Assembly (NCBI GenBank): GCA_964599875.1
Contig: CAZRHE010000008.1
Coordinates: forward strand, 9,781 to 73,780
Reading direction: 5' to 3'
Length of the DNA stretch: 64,000 nt
From: an uncultured Bacteroidaceae bacterium
GTDB lineage: Bacteria > Bacillota > Clostridia > Christensenellales > CAG-917
Shown: piece after piece, positions 1,169-27,073 of the stretch
How positions within the stretch are numbered: the first letter of the stretch is position 1
How the letters are laid out: every line of letters starts with the position of its first letter
Notes under the pieces: model-generated
The model's database searches: none
Told to the model about the DNA's origin: nothing
What the model saw: the letters and a program-made list of their open reading frames with translations, nothing else
Translations under genes and position numbers: made by a program

Positions 1169-1186
1169 TTATTCAGTTGTTTTTCA

Positions 1187-4100
1187 TCAACCGTTGATGG
1201 TGATGGTGTACAAGCCTTTGACCGCTTGTCCGACGGGGATTTCTTGTCCCGCGCTTACCGCGTAAATCGTTTCTCCGTTCACGGTCAAGCCCGTCGATCC
1301 GCTGTTGGCGGTTGCGACCGTGGTGTCGCCCACTCTGGACACGCTGTCAACGGACGCGCCGACGCATGCGTACAAGTAGTAGACGACCTTTCTGCCGCTG
1401 GGTGCGGAGAGGACGTATTCACCCGTATCGGATGCAAGCATTACGGAGTGGTGCGAGAGAGGGGTGCCGCCGATGCCGTAGGATACCGCGACGCCGTACC
1501 AAACGACGGGCACTCCGCCGACTTTGGTGTTGAGTTTATTGCCGCTGTACGAAGGCGTTTGACCGCTGACGTCCTTTCCGGTGACGGTGAACGGAATTGT
1601 AATACGTTCGCCGTTGCCGAGTTGGATAGTTGCGTTCTTCGCATCGCTCATGCCGTTCTTGAGGATGTCCGCAGTGAGGGAGAATCCGCCGGGCATGGAG
1701 AGCATCACGTAAGTGAATATCTTGGTGTCGTGCGTGCTGCCGGTCTTGTGGCTATCCCACTTCGTACCTTCGGTGGTGGTCGTCCAACCCGTCACCTTGC
1801 CGTTGGTCACGACGGGGTTCGAGATGTCGAACGTCACTTTGTACGCTTGAGGAATCGCGTAACTTGCGGTGTTGCCTGCGTCGATCGTGTAGGCGGACGC
1901 CGTATGGTTGGATACCGTCGCAGTGTACGGTGCGGAAGAGTAACGCGCGCTCGTAATCGTGCCGTTCGCCACTCTTTCTTCGTCGAGTTTGAACACGGTG
2001 GTGATGGACTTCGCGTACATTCTCTGGACGAGGAACGGAATCTCGAATTCTTGTGCGGTTCCGTCAGGACCGGTGAGGACTGCGATGAGGTAAATCATGC
2101 CGCCTTCATAGGTCGGGTTGAACTTGCTGAAGTTCCATGCAAGGGTGTAACCGTCGCTATTTCCGAAGGTCTTGACCTCGGTATCCGTCGAGCCGTTGCC
2201 CTTCGTCACGTTGACGTTGAGGGTATCGGGAAGCACGACGTCCTTGGAGAGGTATTCGTACGGGTTGATATAGGTTTGATTGCTTGCGCCGTAGAAACCG
2301 GTGTTCTTGGTCAAATCATCGTTTCCGCTTGCAAGGCCGGTGACCGTTCTGGGATTGACGACGAGGTTTGCGACCACGACTTGATCCTTGACGCCGTCGC
2401 CCTTGACGGTCGCTCTGATGAGGAAGGTGCCGCCTTCGTAGGTGACCTTGCTTGCGCCGAAGTTCCAAGTGACTTCCTTATTGACTCTGGTTCCGTTTTC
2501 GGTGACGATAGTCATGGAGTTCGGGAAGTACTTGTAGCCGATAGGTGCATAGAGCGTTCCGCTGTATTCGACGCGTTCCTTATCCGAGAGTTCGACGTAC
2601 TTGCCGTCTTTGAGTGCATATCTACCCTCGTTGTTCGCCTCGAAGATTTGTTCGAAGACGTCGGGAGTGGTGTACGGATCGAAGGTGAACACATACGTGT
2701 CGCCGTTCTTGCTCATATGCGACTTATCCGCACCCGCGACGAAGTCGCTGTCCGCGATGCTGACGGAGTTGACGATTGCACTGTTGACTTCGATAGGTAC
2801 GCGTACGGTTGCGTTTGCGTTGTTGACGACGCCCGCGGTAATGGTGACGGGGCTGGACAAGACCGCTTCGACGTAGGACGTTCCGCCGTTTACGCTGACG
2901 GTGGTATCTTTGGTGACCCACTCTGCGTTCAAGGTTTGACGTACCGTGAAGACGAAGACGTAAGTGCTTGCGCTATCGATGAAGTCGTCGTCGGAAAGGA
3001 CGGTGTAAGTTCTGCCCTTCGCGTTGTAGTGATAGTAGTACGGAGTTCCGACGCGTGCGCCGTCCTTGAGTGCTACTTCGCCGTTTGCCGCGACGGTGCC
3101 GTTGCCGAGGACCTTATAGATGTACTTGGAGGAATCGCCGAGCCACTTGACGTTTTCATAACCGTTCGCGTTCCATTCGTCGACGGTGATGAACTTGCCG
3201 TCGGGATAGAAGGTGACGGTATTGCTGTAATTTGCCGTGTTGTACGCGCTCTTTGCATCCGTATCCTTGGTGTAGACTTCGAATCCGGTGTAGTTGAGGT
3301 TGTCGGTGGAGAGTTTGGAGGACGCGACGTCACTGTTGAATCTGGTTACGTCGGTCTTCTTAATCGTGACCTTGACCTCGAGTGCGGACTTGCCGTTGAG
3401 GAAGATTTCGAATTCCTTCGCCTCGGTGGGATAGACGTGGAGTTTGACTTTGTGAGTGGTATTCTCGGTCACGTCGACTTTGCCGAAGAATTGTTCGAAG
3501 CCCTCGGTTTCGAGATAGTAGCGTCTTACTTCGCCCGCGCCGTTGAACTTGACGTCGAGATATTTCGGGAGCGAAGGATTGCCGAAGGAGTATGCGTTGT
3601 AGAAGACGACTTCTTCGGGAAGGTTGGTATCGCTGTCGTAGACGACGTCGATGACGTTGCCGAGATTTGCGTCCTTGCTACCGTAGGTAATCGCGTAAGA
3701 CGAGTAGCTATACTTGAGGTTTTCGGATTGTTTTTCGAATCCGTCGAAGACGAAGTTCGCTTCCTCTGCCGCTCTGGTGAGGACGGTGAGAGGTACGGTT
3801 ACGTATTGCGACGCGCCCATGGAGTAGCGGCTGCCGCTGTATCCGCCCTCGATATCCGCTATCTTGACGTAGCGAGGATTATCGATTCCGTCGTCGGTGA
3901 TATCCGCGATGCCGTATTCGCCGTCTGCGGATTCATAGTAGAACGTGAACTTAACCTTGTTGTTTGCGTTGAAGTAACCCTTGCTCGTAATGATGCTGTC
4001 GTCGGGCCATTCGGGTACGAAGTCGTACACGGTGCCGTCCTTGAGGGTTGCTTTGACGGTGAGAGGCAGGTTGAGTCCGCCTTCTCTGAAGGTGTCGTTG

Positions 4101-7100
4101 AAGAACGGATCGAGGATAATCGAGCGATATGCAGGATTGGTTATCTTCTTGATCGTTCTGTCGAGGATTTCGACGGAGATGGTTTGTTTCTCACTGCCGC
4201 CCGGATAGGTGAGGGTGACTTCGAGGTCGATAGTCTTGCCGAAGTACGCCGCGGTGTTGGTGTAGTAGTCTGCGGGCAGTTCGTACGTACCGATTACGGT
4301 TGCCGTACCGCCGGAGGCGGTTTCGATGGTGATTTCATCACCCGAGGCAAACAAAGTGGTATATACGTTGAACGGGTCGAGGAGCGAGCCGTTCAGCATC
4401 ACCGAGGTGATGCTGTCGCCCTCTACCGCGAGTTTGACGGCGACGTCCGCTATCTTCTCATCATGTAGTCTTATCTCGACGTTGACCGTTCCGTCTTCGT
4501 TGAGACCGCTCGTGATATTGCCGTTCTTGTCGTACGTAACTTTCCAGTTGAGGGATACGTCGTATCTGTTCGTACCTTCGGTTCCTACGACTGCGACTGC
4601 CTTGGTGGGCAGACCTTCGTAGAACTTATCCGCGGTGAGCACGTATCCGTCGGTCACGAGGTTTTCGATTTCGCCGACTTCGAGTCTGTAGTTGGTGTAC
4701 ACGACGAAGGTTACGTTGATTTCGCCGAGGTCGGAGCCGATATACGCCGTACGGACGAAGGAGCCTGCCGCGATTTCCGCATCGGTGGGTTTAGCATAAC
4801 TGTTCCACACAACGGGCACTTCCATTGCGGGAGTATTGTCCTTGAAGGTTACGGTTGCAGTATTGTACTTGCCTGCGAGATCCCAGTTGCCGAACGGCGA
4901 GTAGTAGTGCGTTTCGTCCTTGTTGAAGTTCGTTATCGTGCACTTGCTGACGTTCGCTTTGAGGTCTGCGACGGGTCTGTTATCTCCGACGAGATAAATC
5001 TTCGTTCTGAACGTGCCGTTGGTGGGATACGCAAATCCATCCACGTTGTAGAGCGTGAATTCACGATACACGTAAGTGCCGTTTTCGTCCGTGCGATAGA
5101 CTTTGTTGCCTTCCGCGTCGGTGACGAAGTCGGAGTCGAGTTCACCGGGTGCGCTGTAGTCCGCCCACGTAATCGCGCCGACTGCGGACACGGAGTTGAT
5201 TCCGAGTGCGTTGCCGAGGGTTGCGTAGATAGGCAATCTCCATGCGTCTTTGACGTTGTATTCGAACGAGTGCGAAATCATTTCGCCGTTTTGGAACTTG
5301 ATATCGGATGCAGAAACTTGTCCGCCGACGAATCTCAAGGTGCCGCCGTTTGCGTTGTTAAGGTCGAGGTCGATCTTGTTGACCGCGGTGGTGGGTACGT
5401 TGAGGGTGACGGTTTGTTTTTGATTACCGACTTTGAGGGTTACGTTTCTCTTTCCGCCTTGTGCGGTGAACGCGAGTGCGCTGACGTCCCATTCGTTGAC
5501 GAACGCGATTTCGCTGAAGGATTCTCCGCCGACGGTGTAAGTAATCTTAACCGCGGTGCCGTTTCTGTAATCGCCCCACGCGCCGACCTTGAAGTATGCG
5601 GAAGGATCGGTCACGTATGCGTAAGGCATGACGTTGTATTCAACGGTTCCGTTGCCGTCCGCCGCAGGAACGATGGTTTGTGCCGCGTAGCCGTCCGCAA
5701 CGTACTTGCTGATATCTTTGAGTGCGGATTCGCTCATCGTATTGATAAGTCCGCTGCCGTAGATATCCTTGCCGTTTTGGATGCTCTCGTCGTAGAAGAA
5801 CTTGACTTCGGAAATCTTCTTGACGGGTACGGAGAGTTTGAGGCGGATGGTTTGCGCGACGCTCTTGCCGTTTTCGTCGACGTAGTTGCCGATAGGATCG
5901 CCGTTTGCATCTCTACATTCCGCTTCAACGGTTGCATAGTACGTTCCGCCGTCGAAGATATTGTCTACCGCTTTGGTGTAAGTGGAGTTTGCGTAGTACT
6001 TAATCGTGCTCCAATCGGGGTACATGGTCTTGTCGACGGTGTTCTTCTCGCTGAATCTGACGTTGAGTGCGGTGTATGCATCCTCGTTGTACCATTCAGG
6101 ATTGAAGACGTCTTCTCTTGCAACCTTAACCGCTGTTTGAATTGCGGTCATGGAAGTCATGTTAATCTTGACGTAGACGGTTTGCGTGCCGCTGACGGAG
6201 TTGCCCAAAGTGAACTTGCCGTAGAGGTCTTTGCCGTCGTAACCCTTGTAGGAGTACGCAGTGTGTACGAGGTCGGTCGCCTTGACGTAATTATCGCCGT
6301 CCTTGTAGTAAGGCACGTCGAGGGACAAGAGGTTGCCGTCGAGTTGTACGTTGACTGCTTTGTCAACGCCCTTGAACTTGACCTTGAACGCGTTGCCGAA
6401 GACGGTGTTGTCGATTTCGTCGTTTGCGTAGACGTCGAAGGTGAGTTCTTTCTCAAGACCTTCGAATTCACGACCCGTGATTGCGATTCTGACGGGCACC
6501 GCTTGCGCGATATAGCCTGCGGACGCAAACTTATCCGAAGTCGAGCCGCTGCCGACGAAGCCGTAATTTGCATTGCCTTCATCGTCGTAACCGGTGACGT
6601 ACTTGAATTCGTTGCCGCCGACGTATGCGGTGACGGTGACGTCTATGCCCTTATAGTAATCGTAGCCGGTGATATTGCCGTTTTCATCCGTGACTGCGAT
6701 TTCTTTGAGTCTTGCTTCGAGTGCGGAGAGATCCCACTTGACCGAGAAGTCTTTGAAGCTCGAAGAACTGCTGCCCGCGGTGTACTTGCCGTTGACCTTG
6801 GTGAAGCCCTTGACGTACTCTGCGATGCTGTAGCCGTTGCCTTCGTTCAAGAAGGAATCGAGGCTGAACGCGTCGAGAGTGGTAAGAGTCTTCGTGGTGT
6901 GGCCGTTATCGCGAGTGAATGCGGTGAGCGAACTGATTTCGTTACCCGCGAGGGTGACGGAAACGGTGTCTTCGATTTCGTTCGAATAACCCCATTGATA
7001 GGTGAATCCGACGTCGATCGTACCGCTGGACCAGTTGTAAGTGAAGTCGCTCGTATCCCAGGTTATCCAGCCTGCGGGGAACGCCTTGCCCTTGGGCAGA

Positions 7101-10100
7101 TTGTTGTAGTTGAGTTTGACGTAAGTCGTTTGGGTATCGCCGGAAGAAACGGTTTCGGTCTTGACCTTATAGTAGGTGACTTTGCCGTCCGTACTTGCGT
7201 TGCCGCTGACTTTAACGTATCTGTCGCCGTCCTTGGTGAAGAGCGGGAATACGCCCGTTGCGGAGTTGTATTCGTTGATATCCGCAGTGGATGCGACTTC
7301 GTAATCCACGCCCGCCAGGTATGCGGGGATGAGTTTGTAGTTGTTGCCGTCACTGTTGGTGATTGCTTCGCCCGCGCTGTTGTTGCCGAGAGTCACTCTG
7401 TTGTTTCCGCTGTAAGAGATTGCGTAGAGCATATCTCCGTTCTTATCGGTGAGAGGTACGCCGAAGGTGAGATTGCCGTTGACGAAACTGAGTCGAGCAA
7501 GGTCGGGAAGATCCACGTTTTGCTTCTTCTTGGAGTCCGTCATATCGATGGAGAGCGCCTTATTGCTGAAGGAGCCGTCGCTGTTCTTGACGTATCCCTT
7601 GACGTCGGTGAGTGCGTATCCCGAAGTGACGTAGACGGGGATTGCATAGAGCACTACGTTGAGCGCGTAGCCGTATACGTAACCCGCAAGATATCTGCCG
7701 TCGCTTTCAAGGGTTGCCGCGGTGAAATCGACCGAACTTGCGTCCCAAGTGATGAACGTACCGCCGAGGTAGTCTTTGTCGCCGGTGTCGGTGACGCCTG
7801 CCGTGGAAGTGGTGCCGTTGAGCGTCCAAGTGACGTCCGCCTTTTGCGGGAAGATATTCTTATTCTCGAGGTAGGTTTCGTTGAGAATAATGTTGTGGTT
7901 GCCCGCCGTACCCTCTCTGGTTGCAGGGTCGGTGATGATGATTTCGGTAGGCGCTTCCACTTCTCCGTCCATAACGGTTGCGGTTTCGCCTTCGAGGAAT
8001 CCGAGCATACCCGTCTTGGTCGAGGACTTCGAGTTGGAGAGCGGCGTTATGCGGAGCACCGTCCAATCCCAACCGCCGAGCACGTTATCTCCGCTGACGT
8101 TGCCGAGAGCGTCGGTCATAGTGTTGGTGCCGGTAGAGGTTTGTCCGTAAACTTGACCGGTCTTGACTCCGTCCGTGTTTCTGTTGTAAGTTCTGACGGT
8201 AGAGCCTGCGCCGACCTTATCCGCGTTGACGTAGAGTTCGATTGCTTGGATGCCTCTGAACATCGTGACGTCGTTGCCGAGGTTGTAATCCGCATTCTTC
8301 GGCGCAAGGTCGATATAGATATTCGCGGTAGGATCGCTTGCGAATTCGTTCACGAAAGGCAACGGCAATATCGTTGCGATCAAGTGGCCGATATTTTCAA
8401 GCGTATCCAGTGCCATTGCAAGACCCGCGAGGGTGTTGATGTTATCGACGCCGAGGTCGGGAATGATATCCTTTATGAGCCATTGATAGAGATAGACGGG
8501 GATACTACGCGCATAAGGTTCGATGAGCGCTACTCTCTTCACGGTCTTCTCGTGTGCGGAAATGTTTTCTTTTCCTATCGCTTCGAGTTGCTTGAAGAGT
8601 TCGATAAGCATGTTTTGACCGTTACCGCCGATGTTGTAATTGTCCATCGATTGTCCTCTGTCGTGGTTCAAGCCGAGTTTATTGATATCCGCGAAGTAGT
8701 ATGCCTCGTGCTTGTTGGCGTCGATGACGTCTTGGAACAAGGTGAGGACGAGGACGTTGATCATGACCATCAATTCATTGAAGGCGTCTTTGCCGAAGGT
8801 GATCTTGATGGAGATATATCTCGTGTCGTCGGATGCGGACGGATTGAGGTCGGTCATGCCCGAATAGTACGGGATATATCCGTTGCTGTTGAAGAGGTTG
8901 ACCTCGAGTTTTTGGATGAGACCGGTGAGGTCTGCGGAGTACGAGTAATCTGCGTAGTTAATTTCGCCCGAGGATGCCGCTTCGCTTGCAGGATATGCGT
9001 AAGTGCCGTTGTCGCCGTCTTCATGGCTGGTGAAGCTTGCGAACGCGCCGTAGGGGTTATCGTCGGACACACTGCCTGCGACTGCGATACCACCGACGGT
9101 GTCGTTGATGATTCCGTTCAAGAAGTCGGAAGACAAGTCGACGTCTTTGATGATGATGCTGAGGTTGTTTTGGAGGGTCGCGCCTGCAATGAGGTTCGTT
9201 CCGCTACCTGCGTTCTTCTTCGGGTGATCGACGTCTATATAGAGATAGAGTTTGTACGGGTCGTTACCACTGCCCCAGGTCTTGATTTCTCTGCTGAGAT
9301 CGAGTTCCGCGTGGGTGGTGGTGAAATACGACATAAGTTTGGTGCCGTCGCCGTTGAAGATGGTGTTATTGCTAAATCCGGTATCCGCCGTCCACACTTT
9401 CTTATCGATATCGATACGGAGTGCGGGATTGAGGTTGTCGAATATGTTGTTGATGAGCGAACTGAGACCCGCGGTCGTCGAGTAGGTGATGCCCGCGTAG
9501 CCGTAACTGACTTCGCCTATCTTATCCGCGACGTTGATCTTGTTGTTGCCGATTTCGATGCTGAGGTCCTTGATTTCGAGAGCGAGCATGGTGCCGACGC
9601 TGTCGAGGATTGCGGTGACGCCCAGTTTTTCAAGACCGGTCAAGAAGTCGTAGAGCAATTCGACGGATGCAGATTGCAAAGGCATTTCGTCGAGGCTGAT
9701 GCCGAGGGACGAGAGGTCGAGCCCGAGCAAGCCGATAACCGAGTTGATGAAGTTGGTGTCGATATTGAGTGCAATACGACCTTCTTCGATATCAACGTTG
9801 AGTGCGAGTTTATTGCTCGCGCTTGCACTGCTTTCCGCCTCTGTGGAGAGTGCCTCGTTTGCGGACTTCGCATAGTTGGTCACGTAGTTCTCCGCGTATT
9901 TTTGTTTTGCGCCGAGGATACCTGCGAAGCCTTGGAACTTAATCTTGCCGAGACCGAGACCGCTTGCGTCGATATAGAGCGCGTCGTTGATTGCGGTGCC
10001 GACCATTTCGGTAGTCAGTTCGTAAATGGAGCCCGTGTTCTTAAGTCTGGACGAGCCGAGATAGTAGACGGACAAGAATTTTTCGGACATCAATTCGCCG

Positions 10101-13100
10101 ATGGTGATATCGAGTGCGATATCGCTATACAGGATACCCGAGATACCGTACGTGAGGATTGCGCCGAGGTTGATATCCGCGGTGAGCGCGATATCGATCG
10201 TGATAGGACGTTTCGGGAAGTTGAGTTCGATATCCGCGACTACGAACTTGAACTCGCCGTTGTCGTCCGCCTTGTATTCGCCGTCCACGTAGGAGTATTT
10301 TTGTCCGTCGTAGCCCGCTTCCGCTTTTTGGAAGGTGCCGAACATTCCCGTGCCTTCGAAGAGTCCGCCGAGCAAGTCGATGACCCATGCGACGAAGGAG
10401 TTTTCATATCCTGCATCCTCCTTCATAAGTCCCGCGGAGGTTATCGTAAGGCTGATAGTCGTGCTGAGGCTGACGGTGGAAAGACCGATTTCGCCGGTTT
10501 CGACGTTATACGCCTCTGCGTAAGGAATATAGTACTTGCCGTTAAGTGCTTCTTCGAAGTGTTCTTCAACGTACTTGTACGCGCCGTTTTCAGCGGTGAC
10601 GTAAGTGCCGTCCGCACGTTTTGCATAGCGTTGTCCGTCGTAATCGGATTCGGTGATTTCGACGTATGCGCCACTTATCTTGTTGTATCTCTTCGCGTCT
10701 TCCGCAGAACTGACGTATTCTTCGAAGAGGTTGTCGACAGAGTATCCTTTGACTTTGTGGCGGTCAAGACCGAGTTCCACTATGTCGAGGGATGCGTAGA
10801 ATCCTTCGGTGAACTTCGCGGACAAACTCATGACGAAATCTCTGCTATCAGAATGATAGTAGGTCTTGCCGTCTTCGAGTTTCGTGCCGTTGAACACGGT
10901 GTAAGTGTCGCCGTTCTTCACGTAGACGGTGCCCGAGAACTTGCCTTCTGCGAAGAGTTGTCTGTCGTTCGCGCTCATCACCGCGTAGGTGTTGGGCACG
11001 TAACCGTAACTCTCGATGAGGATATCGCCGAGGTTCGGGATGAGGTCGCCGAGTTCTTTGCCTTGACGTTCGTAAATCTTGTTCGCGACTGCGTTGATGA
11101 CTGCGAAGGACAAGCCTATCGAGAAGTATTGAGGATGTATCAACGCTTCGAGATATGCATAGTCGTGGAGATCCATTCCGCCCGCGGTTTGCGCGTTCGC
11201 CGCCATTGCTTCGGAACCGCTTTCCGCAGTGTCGTCGCCAAAGAGTCCGCCGAGTGCGCCTTCGATGAGTTCGGTCAAGCCGAGTCCGCTGAGGGAGAGT
11301 TTCGCAGTGCTGCCGAGCAAGTGGCTTGCATCGATATACACGCTGTCGTTGTAGAGATAGACTGCAAGGATAGGATCGGTGTTGAGATATCCGTTTTCGT
11401 CGTATTGCAAGATTTCGAGCATCACTTGCATCGCGCCGAAGTCGGTGAAGTCGATGAATGCGCTCAAATTGATTCTTGCAGACGGATAATCTCTGCTGCC
11501 GAGGTCGTTGGTTATGTTGATATTGAAGTCGGAGCCTGCGAGGTCGCTTTCGGGATTGATGAGTCCGAGGATGAGGTCGAGGAGTTCGCCGAGTTCGACG
11601 ACGTTCTTCGTGCCGTCCGCAAGCGTTGCACCGCCGTAGTAAGAGAGGTCGATGCCGATGCTTAGGTTCATCGAGGACTTCTTAATATCCGCGTAGTCGG
11701 TTATCGCCATTCCGTCTTCGTCAAGGTAGGTGTAAGAGCCGTCCGCGTTGTATTGGACTTTGTCCGCGCCCACTTGCATGGTGTCTTGGTTTGCCCAAAG
11801 TCCGAGTCCGTGGAGTTTGATTTGGAGACCGAGGTCGCCGATTGCGATATAGTCACCCGCCGTCTTGACGTCGTAGGTGTTGTTCGCAGTCGCGGTGAAC
11901 GCCGTTGCTCCGAGTCTGTTGTAGGTGGAAATCAATACGTATTCGGTGCCCGCGCTGTCTTTGACGATTGCGTCGTTTGCGCTGAGTTTCGCATATGCGC
12001 CGTCGCTATTCGTGATGACCATAAACTTGCCGAGGCCGTATGCGTTCTTTGCAAAGACGTTCTTTTGCGTCGCGTAGTCGAACACTTTCGTGAACTTGAA
12101 GTTGCCGTCCGCGTCGAATCCGTCGAAGTTGTAACGGTCGCCCGTCCAAGAACTAATCCATTCGCCTTCGGTGTAATCGTCGTGTACGGGGGTGCTTGCG
12201 GATGCGTACGCATAGTTTGCGAGCACGTATTCTTCGGTTTGGAGCAACACGTAGTTGCCGTTTGCCGCCTTCGTGTAAGTGCCGTCCGCGTTCTTATTGT
12301 ACTTCGGCAAATTGTCCGCGTTGACTGCGTGTTCGTCACGGAGTACGTCGAGGGTTACCCAAGATTCCATACCTGCGACGAAGCCGAGGTTGACGAGGAT
12401 GCTGGGTGCGCCGCCGCCGAGGTCGATAACAAGACCGCTTGTGTTGATATCAGAAGTTTGAACGAGTCTGGGCAGATATTCGGTGACGTCCGCGAGATCC
12501 GCTACGAGCATTCCGACGAGGTCGCCGATGAGGCTTTCGTTAAGTCCGACAGCGACGATATCGTTTGCCACGAGGATTTGTCCGAGGAGCATTCCGATGA
12601 TATTCCAGACGTCCGCGCCGAGCAAGTCGCCGACAAGACCCATATTCGCTTCTTCGTCCGCGCTTGCTTTCGCACCTGCCGCTTCGTATGCGGAACTATC
12701 CGCACCGAGGAGACCGCTGACGTCGAGTCCTTCGAGTTTGAGTTTGCCGAAGAAGTCGCCCATGCCGACGATATCGTTCATATCTTCGAGGTTGAGATAG
12801 AGATTGATCTTGCCGTCGACGATTTGCGCCCAAAGTTCCGCAACCGCAGTGTTGAATTCACCGCTTGCGTCCGCACCGTGGAAGTTGGTGTCGTATTCGA
12901 TTCTGATATACGCTTCGAGGCCGTTGAGTGCGTCGAACAATTCTCCGCCGTTGACTATGTAATCAACGAGGTTCTTGATATTAAGACGTGCTTTGATATC
13001 GATACCCGCGCCGATAGTGCTTTCGAAGTCGCTGTTTCTCCACTTCATGGAGGAGAGGATGAATTCGAAGTAATCGTAGAGGTCGGTGGAGATGAACTTG

Positions 13101-16100
13101 GTCATCTGCTCGGTCCAGTTGATGATATCGTTGAGTTTGAGGCTGAGGTCGAGGCTGAGGTCGATTTCCGCGCTTTCGAGGTCACCGAGGAGAGATTCGA
13201 TATCGAGGTCCGCTCCGCCGAGCAAGTCGCCGAGGTTGAGGGACATGATCTTCGAATAGTTGGTGAAGTCGGAAACGGGTTTGTAGTATACTCCGCCTTC
13301 TTCGACGTCCGCGCCGTTTACGAGCACGAGGTCTTTGATATCCGCAAATTGTCCTGCGGGTTCGGTGCCGACGTACTTGTAGAGGTCGCCCTTGACGGTG
13401 CTATCCCAAACGTTGCCGTCTTCGTCGTAGAGTTTTTCGTCAAGCACGCGCACGAACTTGGTTTCGCAACGCTTGTACACCCACACGCCCATCGCGACTG
13501 CGTTGTTGAACGCCGCCTCGTTTGCGTATACGGTGGTTGCCTTGACGTAGTACTTATCGTCTACCTTGACGACGTCGATGCCGTTTTCGGACTTCGCGTT
13601 GCCCACTTTGACGTATGCGTCTTCATATGGCGTCTTGTCGTCGCGAGTGAAGTTTGCATAGTAGAAGTGATAGTTGTCCGCCGTGTCGGGATCGGTGTCG
13701 TAGGAGTTTTGATAGGTGTTGTTGCGCTTATTGAAGTCTTCGATCGTACCGAAGTCGATGACTGAACTGTCTTCGGTGCCGTTGAAGAGTTGCAGTTTGA
13801 CGAGCATGTCGAGAACGCCCTTTTCGCCGTCTTTGTCGAAGAGTGCGAGGTCGATGCCGATAGAGTACGGGCTGAGTTTGAGGTCAACGCCGACGGTGAA
13901 GTTCGGGAGGATATCTTCGTCGATATCGACTCCGAGCATGCCGAGGAGCAGGCTGACGAAGCCCTTCGTCACTTTGAGTGCGAGAGTACGAGTGTAGAGG
14001 TTGACGTACAAGCCTGCGAGAGTAGGATCCGCATACTTGCTTGCAACTCTGCCCTGTGCGCGTCCTTCGTCCGCCGCGAGTGCGTCGCTTTCGGATTCGC
14101 CGAAGGAGAGAGAGCCGTCGAGGAGGCTTGCAAGGAGTTCTTCAACCGAGTAATCGCTGAGGTCGATTGCGAGTTTCGCGCCTTCGCCGAGGAGCCATTC
14201 GAGATCGACGTTAAGTCCTGCAAGACCGGTGTCTTCGTCGCGGTTGTAGTACAAACCGAGCATATGGGTGAGAGTGCCGTCCGCACCGTTTGCCGCATCG
14301 TTTTCACGACGCCACACGTCGATTGCGAGATCGAGATCGAAGACGTTCATCTTGAATTCGGGCACGAAGTCCATTCTGAAGGACAAACCGATCTTGATTT
14401 CGAAGAGCACTTCTCCGCTGAAGTCTTCAAGGACTTGGAGTGCGATTCCGTCGAGGTCGCCGAGCAATCCGCCGAGGACTTCCGCTACGTTGGTTTCAAC
14501 GCCCGTGGAGTAAAGCACGTAGTCGTTTTCTTGGAGATCCGCGCCGTCTGCGAGTTGTTTATATCCGCCTTGATACATGGTGTATCTGTCTTCGGGTTTG
14601 ACGTACACGGAAGAGGACGGATTGTTGATATCCGCCAGCGTGTAGGATGCGCCCGTCGCGTTGAGAAGGTCGAGATAGTCGCTTACGGATACGTAATCGT
14701 AATATCCGGTGACGTAGATGCCTCCGCGAATGGTGAGGGAGATATAGAACATATCGTCGGTGTCGACGTAGTTGATTTCATTGCCGCCGTCGTAGAGGGA
14801 CATCGCGACGACTTCCGCTCTCGTTGCGTCGAAATCGTTGGTCCAATCGTCGGAATCGTAGTTGCTTGCAAGATATTCCGCAAGTTTAACGTACGTTCTG
14901 TTCCATTCGTCGTACACGTAGTATTCGATTTGTTCCGCAGTGTAACGAGGCATATTCGCAAGGTTTGCAGCCGCACCCGACGCCTTGACGAATTGATTGT
15001 TCGAGTAATCCCAAACGTAATCGCCGGTGCCGTCGTTTTGAGTGGTCACGTATGCGTTGCTTGCTTTTTCGATAATGTTCTTGCCCGTCGCGCGAACGTA
15101 GAGTTCGTCGTCGGTGAGTTCGCCAAGACCGTATTTCTCGCGATTTTCCGCGGTATTTCTGACGTAAACGTCGCGATATTTCTCTTGTTTGTAGAGGGTG
15201 TCCGCAGTGAGTTTGATACGAGGATAGTATCCGAGGTCTTGGAGTTTGATTTGCAGATAGAAGTTGTATTCCGCCGCCGCTCTTCCGAATTCGTTGCCCG
15301 AAGTGAAGTCGATCATTTGACCCGCTTCGAAATCGACGGTCGTGAAGAAGTCTTTGACTGCAACGTATCTGCCCTCTGCGTAGACGTAGAGGTTTTCTGC
15401 GACGATGGGATAATATTCGCCGTGATAGTACATGTAGCGGACGTTATCCGTGTAATTGTCGTAGATATCGATATCGTGGTCGGTGGTGCCGTTGGGCGTG
15501 CCTTCGATCCACTTATCCGAACTGTTCATATCGCCGACGAAGGTGTAGAGATAATCGTCGATCTTGAAGTATTTCGCGCCTGCGGGTGCCGCTTCGCCGT
15601 ATTGTGCTTCGTATTGGTCGGGAGTTATGTACTCTTGTTCTCTTGCGCCGAATTCGGGGAATCCGATATTAAGACCGACTTCGTATTCCCACAGATAGAG
15701 CATGAGGGACACGAGAGGCTTTCTGACGCCTTCTTCCTTGACGGAAACGAGCATATCGTCGTATGCGATTTGAGTGAATTCGTAATACTTATCCACAGGA
15801 GAATCGGGAGTTACTCTCTCGTATTGACCGTCGCCGACGTGATAGTACACGTTGGTTGCGGAAGTTGCTTCCTGTCTTTCGAAGTATCTGTAATCTCCGG
15901 TTGCTCCGTCTCTTTCGGCGTTCTCTTTCTCGAAAGGAGTCGCCTTGGTGAGGAGTTGATAATAATCCGAACCGCTGTTGACTATCTTGATATACGCTTC
16001 ATAGGTGGAGAGCGTGTAGTAATGCTTGGTGCCTGCCGCTACGCCCGCCTCGTAATTTGCGACTTCTTCTTCGGAGAGTCTGCTTGCCATTTCCGTTCTG

Positions 16101-19100
16101 AGATAGTAAGTAGTCTTGCCGTTGGATTCAACCGCATAGTAGGTGCCGCCGATATCGTCGATTTCGTATGCAAAGCGGAAGTCGGATTGTCTTCTCTCGT
16201 CCGCGTCGGTGCCTGCGTAATCTTTGTACAGATACGTGGAGCGGTCGGTATTGATTTGCAAGTACGGTTGCTTGGTGAAGTTGTAATCGAAGTGCAAACC
16301 GTCCTCACCGAGAAGGAGTTCGAGGAGCGCGTTGATATAATCCGCTTGTACTATCGCGCGGATATAAGTGCTGGTGATTCTGAGTCCCCACACGAACGCG
16401 GTGACGTATGCCGCGATATCGTCGCCGAGGAGCGGGAGTTCCGCCGCGGATGCCGCAGTGGTGGTTTCATCGGATGCGAGTGCTTCGTCGCTTTCGTTAG
16501 CGCCGCCGAAAACGCCGGGAAGGAGGTTGCTTGCGATGTCGCGGAGCGAGTAAGAATTGATATACACGCTGGGAATCGAGAAGTAACTGAGGTCGACGTA
16601 AAGACCGCCCTTCACGCGTTTGTAGGTGCCGTTATCGTTTTGATAGAAGTACGTGGAGTCGTAACTGTATCTCTTGTTGCCGTAGAGCATCAAATCTGTG
16701 GTTACAGTCACGAGTTTGTATTCGCCGTCCGCGGAGTCGTAATAGTAATCTCCGTTCTTGGACTCGAAATAATGGCTGTATCTGTCTTCGGGTGCTACGT
16801 AATCGTCCTTTGCGGGATTGATTTCGTTTGCGGTGAGTTTTTCGAATTCGCCGCTAATCATGTAGATGCCGAGGAGAGTACGGGTTTCGCTCTTCGCAAT
16901 AGAGGAATCGTGATCCTGTTTGTCCATTGCGGTAGAGTTGAGTATGACGGACGCATTGATGAAACTGAGCAAGTCGCCGATGCTGAGTTCTTTGCTCGTG
17001 AATGCGTTCTTGATGATATTGAAGAGGTCGATTATCGACAAGTCTTCGTCGAGGTCGCCGACGTTGATATTGACTTCGTATTGACGGAAGTAGTTGACGA
17101 GTGCCGCGAACTTGATTTCGACGTTGATGATGAGTTCCATCTTTCTGTCGAGGTCGCCGTTCATATCCGAAATTGCCGAGATTTCCGCTTTAAGTTTGTC
17201 GGGATCCGCGTCGGGGAAGAGCATTTCGAGGACTGCGCTCAAATCTATATCCGCATCCTTCTTGAAGGAAGTCGTGATATCGATAACTTCGGTGAGAGTG
17301 ATACGATCGAGTTCGGTGATTTCTTGATATTCGGAGAGTTCTTCCGCCGAGAGAGTGTATTCGTGCTCGGTGGTGAATTCAAGGGACACGTTGCGGACGC
17401 CGACGAGGAGGCTGAGTTCCGCATCGTAGCCGTTGCCGTTTGCGGGATAGCCCGCTTGACGACGATAAACTATCGTGCCGTCTTCTCTTGCCGCGGTGTA
17501 ATCCTTTCTTTCGTATCTTCTTTCTTCGGAAACGCTGTCGTTGGGCGCAAGTTCACGGAAGGAACCGTCGTCAAGACGATAGTAGTTGCCGTTGTTGTTT
17601 TGAGTGAAGACGTAATCTCCTTCGATTCCTTCTTCTTCGTCCTTAACTGCGGGGACTTCTCCGTCCGCGAGTTGTACGTAGCGGTCGCCTTGGATGGATA
17701 CGGTCGCTCCGATTTCCACGTTGACGCCGTCGTTGATATCGAGGTCAACGTCCGCACCGAAGATGAGGTCGTCGGGAATATAATCCGCAAGGTCGAGTCC
17801 GTCGACGAGCATTTCGATAATCGTGCGGAGGAACTTGTTCGCGATATTGATAGAGAGTGCGCGTCTGTTGAGGAGCAACAACACGTCGATATCGTCCGCG
17901 CCTACTTCGCCCGCCGCAAGTGCGTCGCTGGATGCATCGCTGTCGGGAAGTACGTTATCCGAGTACGAGCCGTTGAAGATTTCGCCGAGATATTTCTCGA
18001 TGAATCCCGCGACTACGCTGGAGGTGATGCTGAGTTTGGGAAGATTGAGGAACGGCACGTCGATATAGAAGACGTTTTGCACGTAATATGCACCGAGCCA
18101 GAGATTTTCCGCACCCGTTTCGGAAATGTTGATGAGTTCGACTTTGATTTCCGAATTGAGGATTTGCGAGAAGTCGAGCATGACGCCCGCGTCAAGACGG
18201 AAGTGTGCCGAAGAGTAACCCTTTGCAGTGGAAGGAATGTCAATCTTGACGCCTTCGAGGTTGCCGAGGAGTTTTTCGAAAATCATACCGAAGTCGATTT
18301 CACCTTCGGTGATGCCGAGTTCGAGTTCAACCGAGAGGTTGAGGGACACGCTGGATTCATAGAACGGGCTGAGTGCAACGTAATCCTTTCCGTCCCTGCT
18401 CGTTTCGTTGAGTATGTAGGAAGGAATGAGTGCGTCGCTTGCGCCGAATCCGAGGTCGAGGCCGTTGAGTTTAAGACCGATATCGATTGCGTTTGCAGTG
18501 ATATTAAGACCGATCGCGAATTGTTTGAATTGCGTGTAGTAGTCGGGTTGTCTAAAGTAGGTGCCCTCTTTTTCTTGGACGTAACCGAAGTATCTGTCCA
18601 TGAAGGTATCCACCGCGACGTAACCGCCTGCGAAGATATAGTAAGTTTCGTTTTGGTCGTAACCATTCTTCGCGATTTCGACGGTGTCCGCTTGTTCATA
18701 GTTGACGCCTTCTCTGACGTAGAGCGTGTAACGCTCGGTGTCGAAGTGCTCGTCTCCGTTTGCGGTCGCTACGGTTGCGTATCTGCCGCTTTCCTTATTC
18801 TCTTTCCAAACGATTTCGTCATAGTATGCGTATCTTTCGTCGGTGGGAAGGATGAGGATGAAGCAATCCGCGTTCGCGCCGTCCGCGATATAGGTATCGC
18901 GTCTGTAATACGCGCGTTTCCAATCGTCTGCGGAAGTGGTTTCGTCCGCTTTTGCGAAGGTCACGTCGTATCTGGTCGCGCCTGCGGGGATTTCTTCGTC
19001 TGTTTCCGCGAAGATATAGTAATTTCTGTTGTTTTCCGCGTTTCCGCCGAGGTTGATGCTTTCAAGATAATATCTGCCCGCCTCGTTTTCGGTCGCGGAT

Positions 19101-22100
19101 TCGACGTAATATGCGTCGCCGTCGTTGAGTTCTTTAATCGCCGCTACGGTGTCCGCCGCGAAATCCGTATAGGTATACTTGCCCGTTTCCATTCCGAGAG
19201 AAACTTCGAGTTTGTCGAAGACTTCTTCAAAGGAACCGAGGTCGGGAAGAAGTGCGCTCACAAGAAGGGAGATGACGGATTTGGTGATGACGATTTGAGT
19301 TGCGACGTCGGAGTGGATGAGGCTGATGATTGCGTTTCTTTCAACGTCGTAATCGGTTGCCGCAGAATCCACGTCCGCAGTGTCGATATCTTCTTCCGCC
19401 GCCGCAAGTGCGTCCCCTTGTCCCGCCGCATTGGTGCTGTCGTCGCCGCCGATGAGGCCTGCGAGCAAGTCGACGAAGTTGGGCACGTAGGAGTACACGT
19501 CCGCAACGTCGAAGATTTCAACGCCGTTGAGATAGAGATTGCCGTTATAGAGATAGATTCCGCCCTTTGCAAGGTAGTTGCCGTTGCCGTCGGTGAGAAC
19601 GTTTCCGTCGTCGTCCGTTTCGAGGATTTCGAGTGCGACTTCGAGGGTGTTGAGGTCGCTGTTTTCGAGGAATGCGTTCATATTTCCGCCGATGAGAGAT
19701 GCAAGGTCGAGTGCGTTGAGGTCGAGTTTAAGACCCACTCTGATTGCAAGGCCGTCGTGGAAGGTGGAGCCGGTCTTCGCGGTGAGAACCATATCTCTGA
19801 TATAGTTTTCGAGCAGTCCGCCGAGTTCGAGAGATTCGATGTCGTTGCTGTCGAAATACAGGCTCAAATTGAGTCCGAGATAAATGCTTTGCGTTCCGCT
19901 TTGTTCGGAAGAGGGAGTGCCGTTAATCATTCCCATTATGTTCTCGACGTAGTCGGTTATGTCGACGAAGTCCGCTTTTTCGAGTTCGGACAAAGGCGTG
20001 ACGTAATCTCTATCCGCGAGAGTAATATCGAATCCAAGACCGAGTTTGACCGCGATATTCACGCCCGAAATCGTGTTGAGTCTGATTCCGAGAGAGAGTT
20101 TGTCGTCGAGGTCAGCGTCTTTCCAAGTGAGGAACACGCCGCTTTCCACTTCGTCGAGGTTGAGCATGTCGAGGTCGAGATCTTGACCCGTCAACGCTCC
20201 GACAAGACCGGTGATGAACGTGGAGTTGAACAAGATATCCAGTCTATCCCAGTTGTTGTACCAGTATTCGCCGTTTCTGTAAATTGCGGAGCATCTGAAG
20301 ACGATACGTTTGACGACCATGTTGATATAGTCGATGATGCCGAGTTCGCCGTCTTCCGCCGCAAGCGCCGCGCTTTCGCTCGTTCCGCCGATGAGTCCGA
20401 TGATATAGTCGAGACCGACGGTAAGTCTGGGTCCGCCGAGGTCGCCGAGATCGACGTAGAGGTCGCCGTCGATGAGATAAATGCTAATCTTCGCTTCGTT
20501 CTTCTCGCCTTGATTCATAACGAGTTGCACGCCGACTTGGAGTGCGGACAAGATTGTGTCGAGGTCGAAGTTGAAGTTGTCGAAGTCTGCGTCGAGAATG
20601 GAATCGAATCCGAGTTTTTCGAGGTCGATTGCGCCGAATATCTTGAGGACGATATCGTCGTCGAGAGGATCGTTCAAGTAAATATTGAGTCCCAATCTTT
20701 CGATGAGTGCGGTGATTATGTCTTTGACCGTACCCGCTTCCATTCCGCTGATTGCGTTCTTAATCGCATCGATGCTGAGGATTGCGTCGATGAGATCGTT
20801 GAGATCGATAGGATCTTTGATATACAAGCCGTTGGGATCTTGTACGTATCTGCCGTCCGAAGTGCGTTTGGAGTAGCGTTCATCGTCGGGATAAAGCCCC
20901 GCAACTTCGCTGCCGACGAGAGTAAAGGTCGGGTTCAAACTGTATTCGAGGACGAGTTCGAGGGAGAAGGACACGATTTTGTTTTCGCGATACTTGTTGA
21001 AACGACCGATTCCTTCTTCGCCCGTGTATCTGTAATAAGTGGTGCCTTCGACGTAAGTGCCTTCCGCGTTAATCGCGTACGCGCCATCCTTATATATATA
21101 CGCGTGCGCGGGGTCGAGGTACGCTTCGTTGCCTTCGGTCATCTCCTCTGCCGTCAACGCGACGTAGTTTGCCGCCACTTGATATTGATACAAGGCGTTT
21201 TGGATTCTTTCGCCGACGGAGTCGAACGCTTTACCCGCAGTGATGCAAGGTTGTTTGACGTAAACACCGAGATTGAGGAGAGTGCTTTCGAGGTCGAGTG
21301 CGAGTTCGACGTTTTCGAAGTCGATATCGAGTCCGAGTTCGAGTCCGAGGTCGGGCAAACGATCGAGGGATTCGCCGATATCACCCGTGGTGCCTTCTTC
21401 GGAAACAAGGTCGACGACGAGTGCGATTATCGTGAGAATGACTTTTTGGCTGACGACCAAGGAAATATGTTCGCTTGCGATTCCGAGAACGATTTCGAGC
21501 GCTTCTTCCGCACTGACCTTTCTTTCTTCAGCGGACATTGCTTCGCTTTCGTCGCCGTTTTCTTCACCGAGCAATCCTTTGATTGCTTCGACGAGTTTGT
21601 CGATGAGGAGAGTGTCTTCGATGAGGACGTCTTCATCGGACAAAATGCCCATATCGATCATGATGACGCCGTCGTAGAGATAGACACCGAGAATGTTTTC
21701 GTTCTTGACGAGGTTTCTGATTTCGAGAACGATTTCGGTTTCGGACGAGTTTTCAAGATTGAGGTTTGCACCGAGATAAAGTTCCGCATCGAGGACGATA
21801 TCCTTTTCGATTTCGATACCCGCGGAGAGCAGGAAGTCTGCTATGAACGCGGAAACGAGGTCGTTGACGGGAAGTTCTTTATTCGTTCTGTCTTGAGTGT
21901 CGAGCAATTCGAGTTTGAGTTCAAGAGCAAGTTCGACCGCGATGGTGTCGAAGTTGTCCTTGCCGACGTAATTGTCGGGCTCGATGGGATAATATTTGTT
22001 TTCAACGGTGTTCGCATCCGAGAATCCGATCTTGATTCCGCTGAGGGTAAGACCGACCGCAAACGGATCGATACCGACCATCAAATCGAGTTTGTAAGGA

Positions 22101-25100
22101 TTGAATCCCAAACGGAGATAACTGTTGTCCGTATTGAGAGAGATAAAGTCGGTGGAAAGTCCCGATGAGCCGTAGTTGCCCGTCATGCTTTCGACGTAAG
22201 ACGTGGATTCGTCATCCGCCACTTTCTTTTCAAAGCGAGTGCCGGTGTAAGTGCCTCTTTCTTCACCCGTCAACTTCTTGTATTCGACGTTCTTGAAGTA
22301 CGCACCGTCTTCTCTTTCGACGTATTGACCGTCTACGTATGCGTATCTGACGCCGTCGAAGTCTACCGCCGCTTCTTTGTAGGTCACTTCGGGTTTGTAT
22401 TCGCCCGTGGTGGAGAGATAATATTTGCCGTTTATCTTCTCGTATCTTTCGCCCGTGTAAGTACCGAGTTCCTCTGCGGTGAGTTCACGATACGCCATAT
22501 CGGGGCTGATGAGTTCGATGACGGTTGCGATGAGCGTGCTTGCAAGATAGACGGTGATGCTTTCACTACTTGCGTTAAGTCCGCCGATAAGGCCGCCGAC
22601 GAGTCCGACGATAGTGTCGATGATGCTGTCTTCTTCCTCTTCCGCCGTTTCGTCCGCAGACGCAAGTGCCTCGGAATCCGCACCGGATTCATCAGAAGAA
22701 CCGCCGATGAGTGCGCCGAGGTTGAGGTCCGCTATCGCGATATGTACGTCTTTGAGGAGATCGATTTCACTGTCGATATAAAGGGTTCCGGTCGCAACGC
22801 CTGTGGGTTGAGAAGGATCTTCGCAAAGAAGAGTTATTGCAAGAGATCTCTTCGTCGCACCGTTTGCGATTGCGTTTTCGTCGTACTCTCCGTCGAATAT
22901 CTCTATAGATATATCAGAATGAGAGAGTATATAATTAATATCCGCTATATTATCCGCGTTGAATCTCAACTTCGCGGAGATACGGAATCCGAGGGGTTGA
23001 GATACGTCGTACGGGATATCGAACGCGAGCATGAGTCTTTCGAGAAGTCCCGACACGCTTTCGTTGACGGAGCCTTCGGAAAGGAACATGGAAATCCAGT
23101 CGCCGACGGGCCAGTTATCCGCGTTGCTGAACGCGTCGAGGTGAATGGTGCCCGTGAGTTCGAGGAATACTTGGTCGATGCTGATGGTCATATCACCGTT
23201 TTCATCTTTGCCGAGGAGGCTGATGAGGGTGTATGCGTCGTCCCCGGAAGTCGTAAGACCCGCAAGAGGATCTTCCGCGTTCGCACCGAAAGGTTCAACC
23301 GCTTTTACGGTCTTGCTGATTGCGAGTTCGGGGTGTTTGAGAGAAAGGCTCAAACTGCCGGTTACGTTGTTGTTGGAATCTTTGATTGCGCCTTCGATGG
23401 AAAGAAGGTTATCGCTTGCGAGTTTGCTCCACGCAAGTTCGAGTGCGACGTCCATCATAGGCACGTTGATGCCGACGGTGCTCCAAAGGAGTTCCGCAAG
23501 ACCTTGCAAGAGGTCGACGCGGAGTGCGCCGTCCGAAATCTTGAGTGCGATAAGAAGCGCTATATCGAACTTGGAAGAATCGTAAACCATATCTTCCGCC
23601 GCAGATTGTGCCGCAGAATCGTCGTCGCCGCCTGCGATGAGATCCATGATAAGTCCGAACAAGTCGATATCGACCGCGACTTTTTCAATGCCGAAGTTCT
23701 TCGCGTCGAGATATACTTTGCCGCCCACGTAGTAGACGCCGAGGATAAGTCTGTCTTCTTCGTTCTTATACGCACCGTTCTTGACGAGTTCGATAAGGAT
23801 TTGAGATTCGTTGCCTTCGGTGGAAATCTCTTTCGCGCCGAGCAAGTAATCCATGAGAGGTTTAAGGTCGAGGGACGCTTGGATATTGAGGGTGTAATCC
23901 ATCAAAATCTGCTCTTCGAACACGACGTTGCCGCCGTTGCCGAGAGGAGTGCTACCCGCGTTCATCGTGGATTGAAGTCCGAGTTCAAGACCGAGATACA
24001 CGTTGGGAGTTTCGAACAAATTGACCCACAAATCGTCGTATTCGGAGGGAGGAGTAAGTCTGGACGCCGTGTCGGGAACTTCGTTGAATCCGAGGGTAAG
24101 TTCACCGAGCGACAAGGACAATTCGACGTCGTTGCCTACGCCGAGATACAAGAGGAGTTCGAGTTCGGAGAGGTTCAAACCATCCGCAAGGGTGATACGA
24201 ACGCCGCCGTAAGTGCTTTCGTCGATAAGGTTGCTGGAGATATTCGTTCCGACGAGTTTATAATACTTGTCGCCTGCGGAAAGTTGCGCGCCGTTGAATA
24301 CGCTCACTACCCCGTTTTCGTCCGCAACGTACACGGTTTCACCGAAGTTGCCGTTGTTGTACGCGGCGATTTCATCGGAATCGAGTTCCACGAAGTTTTC
24401 GAGGTCGGTGGTGACGCCGAGGAGTTCGAACACTTTCGCGATGAGGTTGTTGACGAGTGCGACTTCGAGATAGTTGTCGCCGAGGGTTACGCCGGTGATA
24501 AGTCCCGCGATGACGGAGATGATTTGACTGGTATCTCCGCTCTCTTCGGAACCTTCGGTCTCGTCGGACGCAAGTGCTTCGGAATCTCCGTCGCCGCCCG
24601 AAATGAGTCCGATAATGGTGTCTGCGGGTATTGCGATATTAAGTCCGCCGAGAACGTCCTCTCTGGTGTGGAGATAAATCGTGCCGCCCGAGAGCCATAT
24701 ATCTATTCCGTTTTCACTCTTGCCCGTGTCGCCGAGCCCGATATGGAAATCGGATTTGAGGATTCCGAGAATATCGAATTCGCCGTTTTCGTCGAGCAAG
24801 TCCGCCATATTGAGCCCGATATTCGCTTCGATGACGAGTTTGCTGGTTTCGTCGAAGGTCTTTGCAAACGCAACGAACGCTTGAACGAGCACGTTGCTTC
24901 CGCTTGCCACTTCGAGATTGCCGAGTTCGCCTTCGAGCGCATAGAGGTTAATAGTCGTGGTCAAGGACACGTAAACGGTGTCGAGTGCCGCGAGAAGTGC
25001 GTCTACAAGTGCGCCGCCGACGTCGTCCGTGCCGGATATGATTTCGCTGATATCGAAGTTGATATAGTCGGATTTAGACGCGCTGATTGCGCTCAATTTC

Positions 25101-27073: not shown

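Follow-up and report, generated by a model that had tools for sequence, protein, structure and literature searches.

In the window, i.e. the whole 64,000-nt stretch of contig CAZRHE010000008.1 (an uncultured bacterium placed by GTDB in the Christensenellales) that was analysed here, a three-part peptide signature recurs within a single giant protein: a hydrophobic, Gly-rich module end, an acidic linker with an A-x-[A/S] core, and a restart consisting of a strand and an amphipathic helix. This locus raises the question of what these recurrences stand for. An earlier examination of the letters alone (the sequence-only reading) had proposed that they mark module boundaries and, as a speculation, that the protein is a polyprotein cut into about 13 extracytoplasmic pieces at sites resembling those of type I signal peptidase, or else that the linkers are flexible acidic hinges or docking or cation-binding loops. 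The analysis shows that the signature marks the junctions between about 14 anciently duplicated modules of a giant membrane-anchored lipoprotein, and we consider it fairly probable that the linkers are flexible acidic loops carrying a short recognition motif.

Junctions and modules of a giant lipoprotein

The region concerned (positions 9815-25573) corresponds to residues ~519-5772 of one minus-strand open reading frame (ORF) of 8,647 codons and lies wholly inside it (Table 1; residue number = (27130 - coordinate)/3). In the encoded protein, the pattern [SDNEAG][EAD]A[LM][AS] occurs 11 times (aa 527, 850, 1486, 1862, 2253, 2572, 3068, 3548, 4348, 5306 and 5758), compared to 1.2 ± 1.1 times (maximum 6) in residue shuffles, and all 11 matches have the same hairpin upstream and the same strand and helix downstream; the remaining proteins of the window gave chance matches only. 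Two further copies are degenerate (aa ~1172-1180, SAAQSAAED, and aa ~4815, YEAAGAKASADEE); at the former, relatives read SAALVAS, DEALAS or SEALSAA. A 14th element, an N-terminal half-copy at aa 103-202 with the hairpin and a minimal linker, has a counterpart in most of the listed full-length homologues. The distances between the conserved Ala residues are 323, 322, 314, 376, 391, 319, 496, 480, 800, 467, 491 and 452 aa, in agreement with the spacing of 314-800 aa given before.

BLAST of the whole giant protein against itself returned the self-match alone and BLAST of chunks only weak pairs (E 1e-5 to 1e-2), so that profiles were needed. In a leave-one-out experiment, a profile built from 12 junction windows detected the 13th every time, with E values between 1.4e-4 and 3.9e-15 (Z = 1000), and a profile made only from the junctions of the window found the equivalent junctions in independent homologues with E values of 1e-9 to 1e-26; in many of the closest homologues, the counterpart of junction 8 scored higher than any other stretch. 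For comparison of the modules themselves, seven proteins were cut at the linkers and the resulting module alignments were compared profile versus profile using hhalign. Module m1 aligned with m3 over 272 columns (probability 97.9%, E 6e-13), m4 with m6 over 309 columns (95%, E 2.6e-8) and m0 with m1 over 235 columns (94%, E 8.7e-8). Judged by these profile comparisons, the homology between several of the modules, each taken from linker to linker, extends over the greater part or the whole of the module, and the proposal that the signature marks module boundaries is thereby borne out, including the significant alignment between modules that it implied. The DNA strings cited for the use of different synonymous codons in the copies are present exactly (tccgaagcacttgcgtcc at 24566-24583, tccgaggcacttgcgtct at 22658-22675 and gacgaagcactcgcatcc at 16472-16489), and DNA similarity between junction windows is almost nil, with just two patches of 28-38 nt. 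The duplications are therefore old and the conservation is at the peptide level, as had been proposed, and a recent DNA duplication is ruled out.

The basic module comprises ~270-330 aa, and the longer modules owe their size to Tyr/Gly-rich insertions that vary between orthologues. These segments, located on the minus strand at ~22121-22513 (aa 1540-1670), ~18491-19213 (aa 2640-2880) and ~14531-16213 (aa 3640-4200), follow a pattern of the type ...DGxY...GxYxY..., e.g. NGKYYLSTTGEYKPEVTYKE and DGAYFKNVEYKKL, and resemble stacked beta-hairpin repeats. They gave no match in Pfam, are missing at some positions in the homologue P0003 and are longer in the homologue P0004.

The true start of the giant ORF is probably the ATG at 27073 (aa 20) rather than the first ATG at 27130, because a GGAGG lies 6 nt 5' of it. 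The signal peptide that begins there has the top hydropathy of the entire giant protein (19-residue Kyte-Doolittle mean, KD19, of 2.6) and ends in a sequence conforming to the lipobox pattern [LVI/F]-x-[AGS]-C (MKKLKIALLMVLVVCLTACFFAC, followed by N). L-V-A-C, I-A-C, V-G-C or L-S-C stand at the equivalent position in the full-length homologues inspected, all 17 of which have a basic N-terminus and, after a hydrophobic stretch, a small residue followed by Cys in the manner of a lipobox. We thus predict that the lipidated Cys at about aa 42 is the membrane anchor and, from the lipoprotein signal and the lack of further membrane-spanning-like segments, infer a cell-surface location of the giant protein. 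Its C-terminus (...TITING) carries no sorting signal. The C-terminal ~2,250 aa are enriched in Thr, Val and Lys relative to the N-terminal part, look beta-strand-rich on reading and presumably form the distal, exposed part of the protein; for this region, Pfam gave just a sub-threshold match to Big_4 (E 0.011) and PDB sequences gave none.

Conservation and predicted structure of the linkers

The 13 linkers of the window protein are 17-45 aa long, a range slightly wider than the 13-27 aa given before, and have net charges of -3 to -11. They evolve faster than the remainder of the protein: compared to the three closest relatives (~70% identity), the linkers are 53% identical and the rest of the protein 72-74%. 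The linkers of these relatives contain indels, yet retain SEALA, SAALA or SEAMA, and orthologues carry linkers at equivalent positions, in support of the module proposal. In an alignment of 513 junctions, the hairpin is conserved at Y65 (74%), L71 (57%), Y72 (83%) and D74 (75%). The linker Ala (A111) reaches 76%, which is comparable to the Tyr and Asp residues of the hairpin, and the neighbouring linker stretch is unconserved. The residue before A111 is Glu or Asp in 54% of the junctions; after it follow a variable, mostly hydrophobic residue (Leu and Val being the commonest), two positions with Ala, Thr or Ser in 75-79%, and then Ala or an acidic residue.

Since aligning low-complexity loops to a profile can exaggerate their conservation, we counted regular expressions in 471 linkers that had not been used for building the profile and compared the counts to those in composition-preserving shuffles. 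The motif [EDQ]-A-phi-small-small (phi, hydrophobic residue) was found in 100 linkers, versus 12.5 ± 3.9 after shuffling, and A-phi-small-small in 175, versus 57.7 ± 6.2, whereas the generic A-x-[AS] was found in 344, versus 313 ± 9. These counts indicate that a specific short motif is under selection and that the bare A-x-A/S is largely a by-product of the Ala/Ser-rich composition of the linkers. Of the linkers of the closest clade, 59% have the A-phi-small-small core, compared to 56% in a second clade and 25% in the rest; the distant members keep the modules though the core is found in only a quarter of their linkers.

Two other explanations of the conserved elements were discarded. A double-glycine leader for a C39 peptidase at L-x-x-L-I-G-G, which would call for a conserved Gly pair at -2/-1 and hydrophobic residues at -4 and -7, does not agree with the Gly content of only 20-24% at those profile positions in the 513 junctions, and the compartment would be wrong as well, the protein being a Sec-type lipoprotein of 8.6 kaa rather than a small peptide processed in the cytoplasm. 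An O-glycosylation sequon does not fit because Ser or Thr is not obligatory, as in DALAAAE and SAALAAED. In some homologues, the acidic linkers contain Cys-containing inserts of the type D-x-D-G-D-G-x-C-D-x-C adjoining the conserved motif (...HEHADLDGDGICDGCNEAMP... and ...HQHVDEDGNGVCDGCNEPMP... in P0002, ...THTDADGDGVCDVCG... in P0005). The window protein is without such inserts, which resemble bacterial TSP3-type calcium-binding repeats and gave one weak match to TSP3_bac (E 0.11).

AlphaFold2 (AF2) models were obtained for the junction alignment (187 aa, 41 sequences) and for an 830-aa segment across three linkers (11 sequences). The mean predicted local distance difference test (pLDDT) of the former was 64.8, with values of 74-87 for the strands before the linker and below 50 for the linker (aa 848-865); that of the latter was 55, with many long strands at 60-81 and all three linkers below 50. 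AF2 thus rates the linkers least confident within models of low overall confidence, which suggests that they are disordered; together with their lower identity (53% versus 73%), this fits the flexible acidic hinges listed among the earlier alternatives. The long strands alternate Leu or Ile with polar residues and so have one hydrophobic face. Around the linker, the predicted order of elements is hairpin, strand, short Gly-rich helix, loop, Gly-rich helix, two strands and amphipathic helix, in line with the layout of module end, linker and restart in the sequence-only reading. Within the 830-aa model, a helix of low confidence (pLDDT ~35) covers the motif of the third linker (residues 744-754, i.e. 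aa 1485-1495). Foldseek searches of the two models against the PDB gave nothing at E < 0.01 and TM-scores of at most 0.3, a weak negative given the low-confidence models; LolA, LolB, LppX, LprF and OspA appeared only among the non-significant matches, on which we do not rely.

Possible roles of the linker motif

We favour a model in which the N-terminal ~5,800 residues form a stalk of about 14 tandem, anciently duplicated, beta-rich modules. Each module would end with the hairpin G-phi-Y-[Y/L]-x-x-G-x-L-Y-phi-D, one strand and a short, Gly-rich amphipathic helix (L-x-G-L-I-G-G), and at the start of the next, another Gly-rich amphipathic helix would precede a strand and a further amphipathic helix. 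The linker between them is probably a disordered, fast-evolving acidic loop with a median length of ~30 aa and a mean net charge of about -5, whose sole constrained element would be the short linear motif [E/D/Q]-A-hydrophobic-small-small-acidic. Such loops may serve as hinges or surface loops that are flexible and negatively charged. They would enable a string of rigid beta modules to reach out from the membrane and to display the beta-rich C-terminal ~2,250 aa. The motif within them may function as a recognition element, i.e. as a docking or limited-proteolysis site offered ~13 times along the fibre, and would not be a type I signal peptidase site for dismantling a polyprotein. The repeats, the family, the conservation of the motif and the fast evolution and low model confidence of the linkers are observations, as is the lack of a signal-peptide-like hydrophobic (h-) region at the junctions; the hinge role, the surface exposure and the identity of whatever recognises the motif are what we infer from them.

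Several points weigh against this model. All members of the family come from uncultured organisms, and the interpretation rests on sequences and models. With mean pLDDT values of 55-65, the AF2 models cannot separate a hinge from an intradomain loop, and they do not show whether the elements before and after a linker belong to a single domain. An Ala that is 76% conserved in a disordered loop argues for specific recognition and would be left unexplained by a pure flexible hinge. The motif has small residues at positions -3 and -1, so that proteolysis is possible, and the host envelope could have one membrane or two.

In the proposal of a polyprotein cut by type I signal peptidase, A-x-A and the Gly-rich hydrophobic segment before it would together work like a signal peptide inside the chain, and ~13 extracytoplasmic pieces would result. 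The residues at the presumptive site are indeed small, with Ala at -3 in 76% and Ala, Ser or Thr at -1 in ~75% of the 513 junctions, and some junctions have a short apolar segment 5-11 residues upstream, a spacing like that of the c-region of a signal peptide. However, substrates of this enzyme have an h-region of about 7-15 uninterrupted apolar residues followed by a c-region of 3-7 residues, whereas the 30 aa upstream of each site in the window protein contain no more than short apolar runs (3-8 residues, Gly accounting for half), broken up by Asp, Glu or Lys, along with 4-12 charged residues, mostly Asp and Glu, and have no basic n-region. The maximal KD19 at the junctions is 0.7-1.6, compared to 2.6 for the true signal peptide, and the gap between the apolar run and the Ala is 5-27 residues, being 18-27 in six of the 13 junctions. 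Thr, which is unusual at -1 for type I signal peptidase, makes up ~22% of the -1 residues; the generic A-x-[AS] hardly exceeds what composition provides (344 versus 313), and distant relatives have the specific motif far less often. Finally, signal peptidase works at the membrane surface on membrane-embedded signals, and these sites are hundreds to thousands of residues away from the anchor. The -3/-1 rule invoked before is thus obeyed, the remaining hallmarks of a signal peptide are absent, and we regard the processing by signal peptidase as highly improbable.

A cut by another enzyme fares better. A protease with specificity for small residues, not necessarily a signal peptidase, might cut [E]-A-phi-small|small in some or all acidic loops, and the fragments would stay associated non-covalently or be released. 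The strong conservation of a short motif within otherwise fast-evolving, probably disordered loops is as expected for such sites, small residues fill the positions expected for -3/-1 pockets, and the low confidence of the AF2 models at the loops would agree with their exposure. On the other hand, the modules are kept in distant members of which ~75% of the linkers are without the A-phi-small-small core, the window protein itself has degenerate copies (aa 1172 and 4815), and module order and number are conserved in a single ORF among close full-length homologues; in the three genomic contexts examined, there was no protease gene conserved in the upstream-adjacent position. We therefore judge cleavage of this kind to be rather unlikely. 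Less likely again, in our estimation, is its extension to the family as a whole, by which these proteins would be surface polyproteins or nicked fibres with up to 13 exposed loops cut, so that the 8,600-residue precursor would give rise to beta modules of ~300 residues, either held together non-covalently in a chain or set free; to our knowledge, such maturation by loop cutting has not been described for Clostridia. We assign a similarly low probability to multivalent docking, in which a helix-prone motif would fold on binding and the fibre would be a scaffold to which a partner protein or a wall component is recruited in as many as 13 copies, while the loops might bind divalent cations. The location of the conserved motif inside a probably disordered region, its single hydrophobic residue flanked by small residues in acidic context, the helix modelled over it in the third linker and the resemblance of the loop inserts of some homologues to calcium-binding repeats are compatible with this idea, but the helix was predicted with a pLDDT of ~35 only, no candidate partner was identified and the motif occurs in no other protein of the window.

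Family, genomic neighbourhood and significance

In an exhaustive profile search with the junction alignment (A1) against 1.84 billion representative proteins, 210 proteins were found at E <= 1e-3, of which 56 at E <= 1e-30, compared to only four partial homologues from Clostridia metagenome bins in an earlier word-seeded search. Many members have 7,000-7,900 aa and 13-17 junctions. The collection now holds over 500 junctions, drawn from about 150 proteins and 39 genome loci. In the source records, they are not named, called 'hypothetical protein' or, once, 'carboxypeptidase-like regulatory domain-containing protein'. The 39 loci in species-representative genomes, one of them on a 1.65-Mb chromosome of a metagenome-assembled genome (MAG), stem mostly from gut bacteria of animals and humans that are recorded as uncultured Clostridia, Clostridiales or Christensenella/Christensenellales. 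The labels Bacteroidaceae or Bacteroides, which the three closest relatives (69-71% identity) and a few other records carry, are probably erroneous. Module order and number are kept in a single ORF across close full-length homologues.

The whole giant protein gave no match in NCBIfam and no Pfam family at E <= 0.1; with 41 junction sequences, Pfam at E <= 10 gave isolated chance-level matches and nothing usable. The module had no match in sequence and profile searches of the PDB, and nothing relevant turned up in the literature, which was searched for giant proteins of Clostridia or Christensenellales and for bacterial surface polyproteins processed internally by signal peptidase. By these searches, the proteins are an undescribed family of giant lipoproteins, mainly of uncultured gut Clostridia/Christensenellales.

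Table 1 Location of the giant ORF, its signal peptide, junctions and C-terminal region in the window.
Feature	Residues (aa)	Linker, aa (nt)	Core or sequence	Position	Strand	Evidence
Giant ORF, 8,647 codons				1187..27130	-	collinear intact orthologues in 39 species-level genomes
Lipoprotein-type signal peptide	20-42		MKKLKIALLMVLVVCLTACFFAC	27005..27073	-	KD19 2.6; lipobox aligns with L/F-V-A-C of homologues
N-terminal half-junction, Gly-rich helices	103-202	minimal, without acidic motif	hairpin MGFYYFDETIVFDV	26525..26824	-	weak profile match, i-E 0.004
Junction 1	427-652	519-563 (25442-25576)	SEAMA	25175..25852	-	leave-one-out E 1.8e-6
Junction 2	742-939	845-868 (24527-24598)	SEALAS	24314..24907	-	E 6.8e-10; AF2 linker pLDDT <50
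Junction 3	1071-1253	1167-1187 (23570-23632)	SAAQSAAED, degenerate	23372..23920	-	E 2.8e-13
Junction 4	1367-1571	1477-1502 (22625-22702)	SEALAS	22418..23032	-	E 1.7e-12
Junction 5	1760-1961	1855-1877 (21500-21568)	SEAMSA	21248..21853	-	E 2.1e-11
Junction 6	2149-2353	2248-2264 (20339-20389)	SAALAA	20072..20686	-	E 2.5e-11
Junction 7	2483-2662	2560-2598 (19337-19453)	GDALAA	19145..19684	-	E 1.4e-12
Junction 8	2956-3153	3054-3080 (17891-17971)	SDALAA	17672..18265	-	E 3.9e-15
Junction 9	3481-3642	3540-3566 (16433-16513)	DEALAS	16205..16690	-	E 1.7e-11
Junction 10	4224-4436	4341-4372 (14015-14110)	SDALAA	13823..14461	-	E 3.3e-9
Junction 11	4700-4910	4809-4830 (12641-12706)	YEAAGA, degenerate	12401..13033	-	E 1.4e-4, weakest
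Junction 12	5197-5366	5297-5322 (11165-11242)	SEAMAA	11033..11542	-	E 5.4e-12
Junction 13	5629-5836	5741-5783 (9782-9910)	NEALST	9623..10246	-	E 7e-8
C-terminal ~2,250 aa, no junction elements	~6400-8647			1187..7933	-	composition differs from N-terminal part

The giant gene is surrounded by an ordinary bacterial chromosome, with genes for a GH20 enzyme, a GH127-like protein, phosphoglycerate mutase and EF-Tu/EF-G, and with further ORFs that resemble ribosomal protein S7, SecA and MetK as judged by their N-terminal sequences. Upstream synteny in the order GH20, 285-aa protein, PIG-L and giant gene is common to three lineages, between whose giant proteins the identity is just ~30% (window 27440-29924, minus strand; locus L001, 5920-9490; locus L041, 1330-4924). 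In this block, GH20 is a hexosaminidase, the PIG-L deacetylase is missing from the copy of the window, and the conserved upstream protein (277-292 aa, 51-56% identity) is cytoplasmic, matches no family and shows no sign of a signal peptide. Farther upstream, genes for HGSNAT-like, GH127-like and phosphoglycerate mutase proteins are common to the window and L001. On the contig of L041, which encodes P0002, the giant gene (5519-27950) is called as two ORFs of 4,143 aa and at least 3,958 aa with a 50-nt overlap; the C-terminus of P0002 looks like junk, which points to a frameshift or an error of assembly and not to a genuine split.

The giant gene nearly avoids the codons TTA, CTA and TCA (6/8,648, or 0.69 per 1000, versus 8.8 per 1000 for 11 further genes in the window) and encodes 67% of its Leu residues by CTC. 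The codon-aligned antisense frame is therefore almost without stops, and the plus-strand ORFs over the giant gene (1226-4468, 4907-11665, 11753-13765, 13790-22168 and 22325-27052), which reach 2,792 aa, are shadow ORFs and do not represent genes. Elsewhere in the window, a ribosomal protein L10 leader (44595-44726; RF00557, 58.8 bits) and a probable rplJ ORF, both on the plus strand, are convergent with minus-strand ORFs at 45830-47605 that resemble rplA and nusG by their N-terminal sequences; the rplKAJL cluster is split here, an unusual arrangement. Two adjacent stand-alone condensation-domain proteins of 432 and 433 aa with paralogous N-termini are encoded at 39235-41960 on the minus strand; neither adenylation nor carrier domains were detected in them.

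Among known systems, the giant protein would resemble in kind the giant tandem-repeat surface proteins of Gram-positive bacteria (Ebh, SasG/Aap and Bap-type adhesins) and cellulosomal scaffoldins, which have a similar size, an N-terminal secretion signal, tandem homologous modules, low-complexity linkers, a distinct distal region and a presumed extended surface fibre. It differs from them in its anchor, which is a lipobox rather than LPXTG or SLH, in its ~300-aa module without match in Pfam, NCBIfam or PDB, and in its linkers, which are acidic with a conserved short motif instead of Pro/Thr-rich spacers. With the A-x-A sites of type I signal peptidase (S26), the junctions share small residues at -3 and -1 and a short apolar segment at variable distance before them, but they are internal and far from the anchor, often have Thr at -1 and lack an h-region and a basic n-region. 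The P97/P102 adhesins of Mycoplasma hyopneumoniae are processed at S/T-X-F|X-D/E, and the gingipain polyproteins of Porphyromonas are processed as well; these, too, are large surface proteins with a short motif at many acidic, probably disordered inter-domain sites, but motif, organisms and folds are different or unrelated, and the window protein is without evidence of cleavage. AsmA-like and bridge-like lipid-transfer proteins (TamB, YhdP, VPS13/ATG2) are also long and beta-rich, with amphipathic strands with a Leu-rich face and an N-terminal membrane anchor, whereas the window protein consists of ~300-aa repeats with disordered acidic loops and, as far as seen, not of a continuous groove. 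No significant match to AsmA, DUF490, Chorein_N or ATG2 or to a beta-taco structure was found, which counts as a weak negative in view of the low-confidence models; a lone ATG2_CAD match among 41 sequences (E 0.047) is at chance level.

These results describe an unannotated family of lipoproteins of 7,000-8,600 residues in a lineage of interest to gut-microbiome research, and the junction profile can be used for its annotation. A short motif that is selectively maintained ~13-fold in otherwise free-evolving loops offers an experimental handle. If the gene on the 1.65-Mb MAG chromosome has the size typical of the family (about 22-26 kb), we estimate that ~1.5% of that genome is devoted to one gene, and such a conserved investment suggests an important role in the cell envelope or in attachment.

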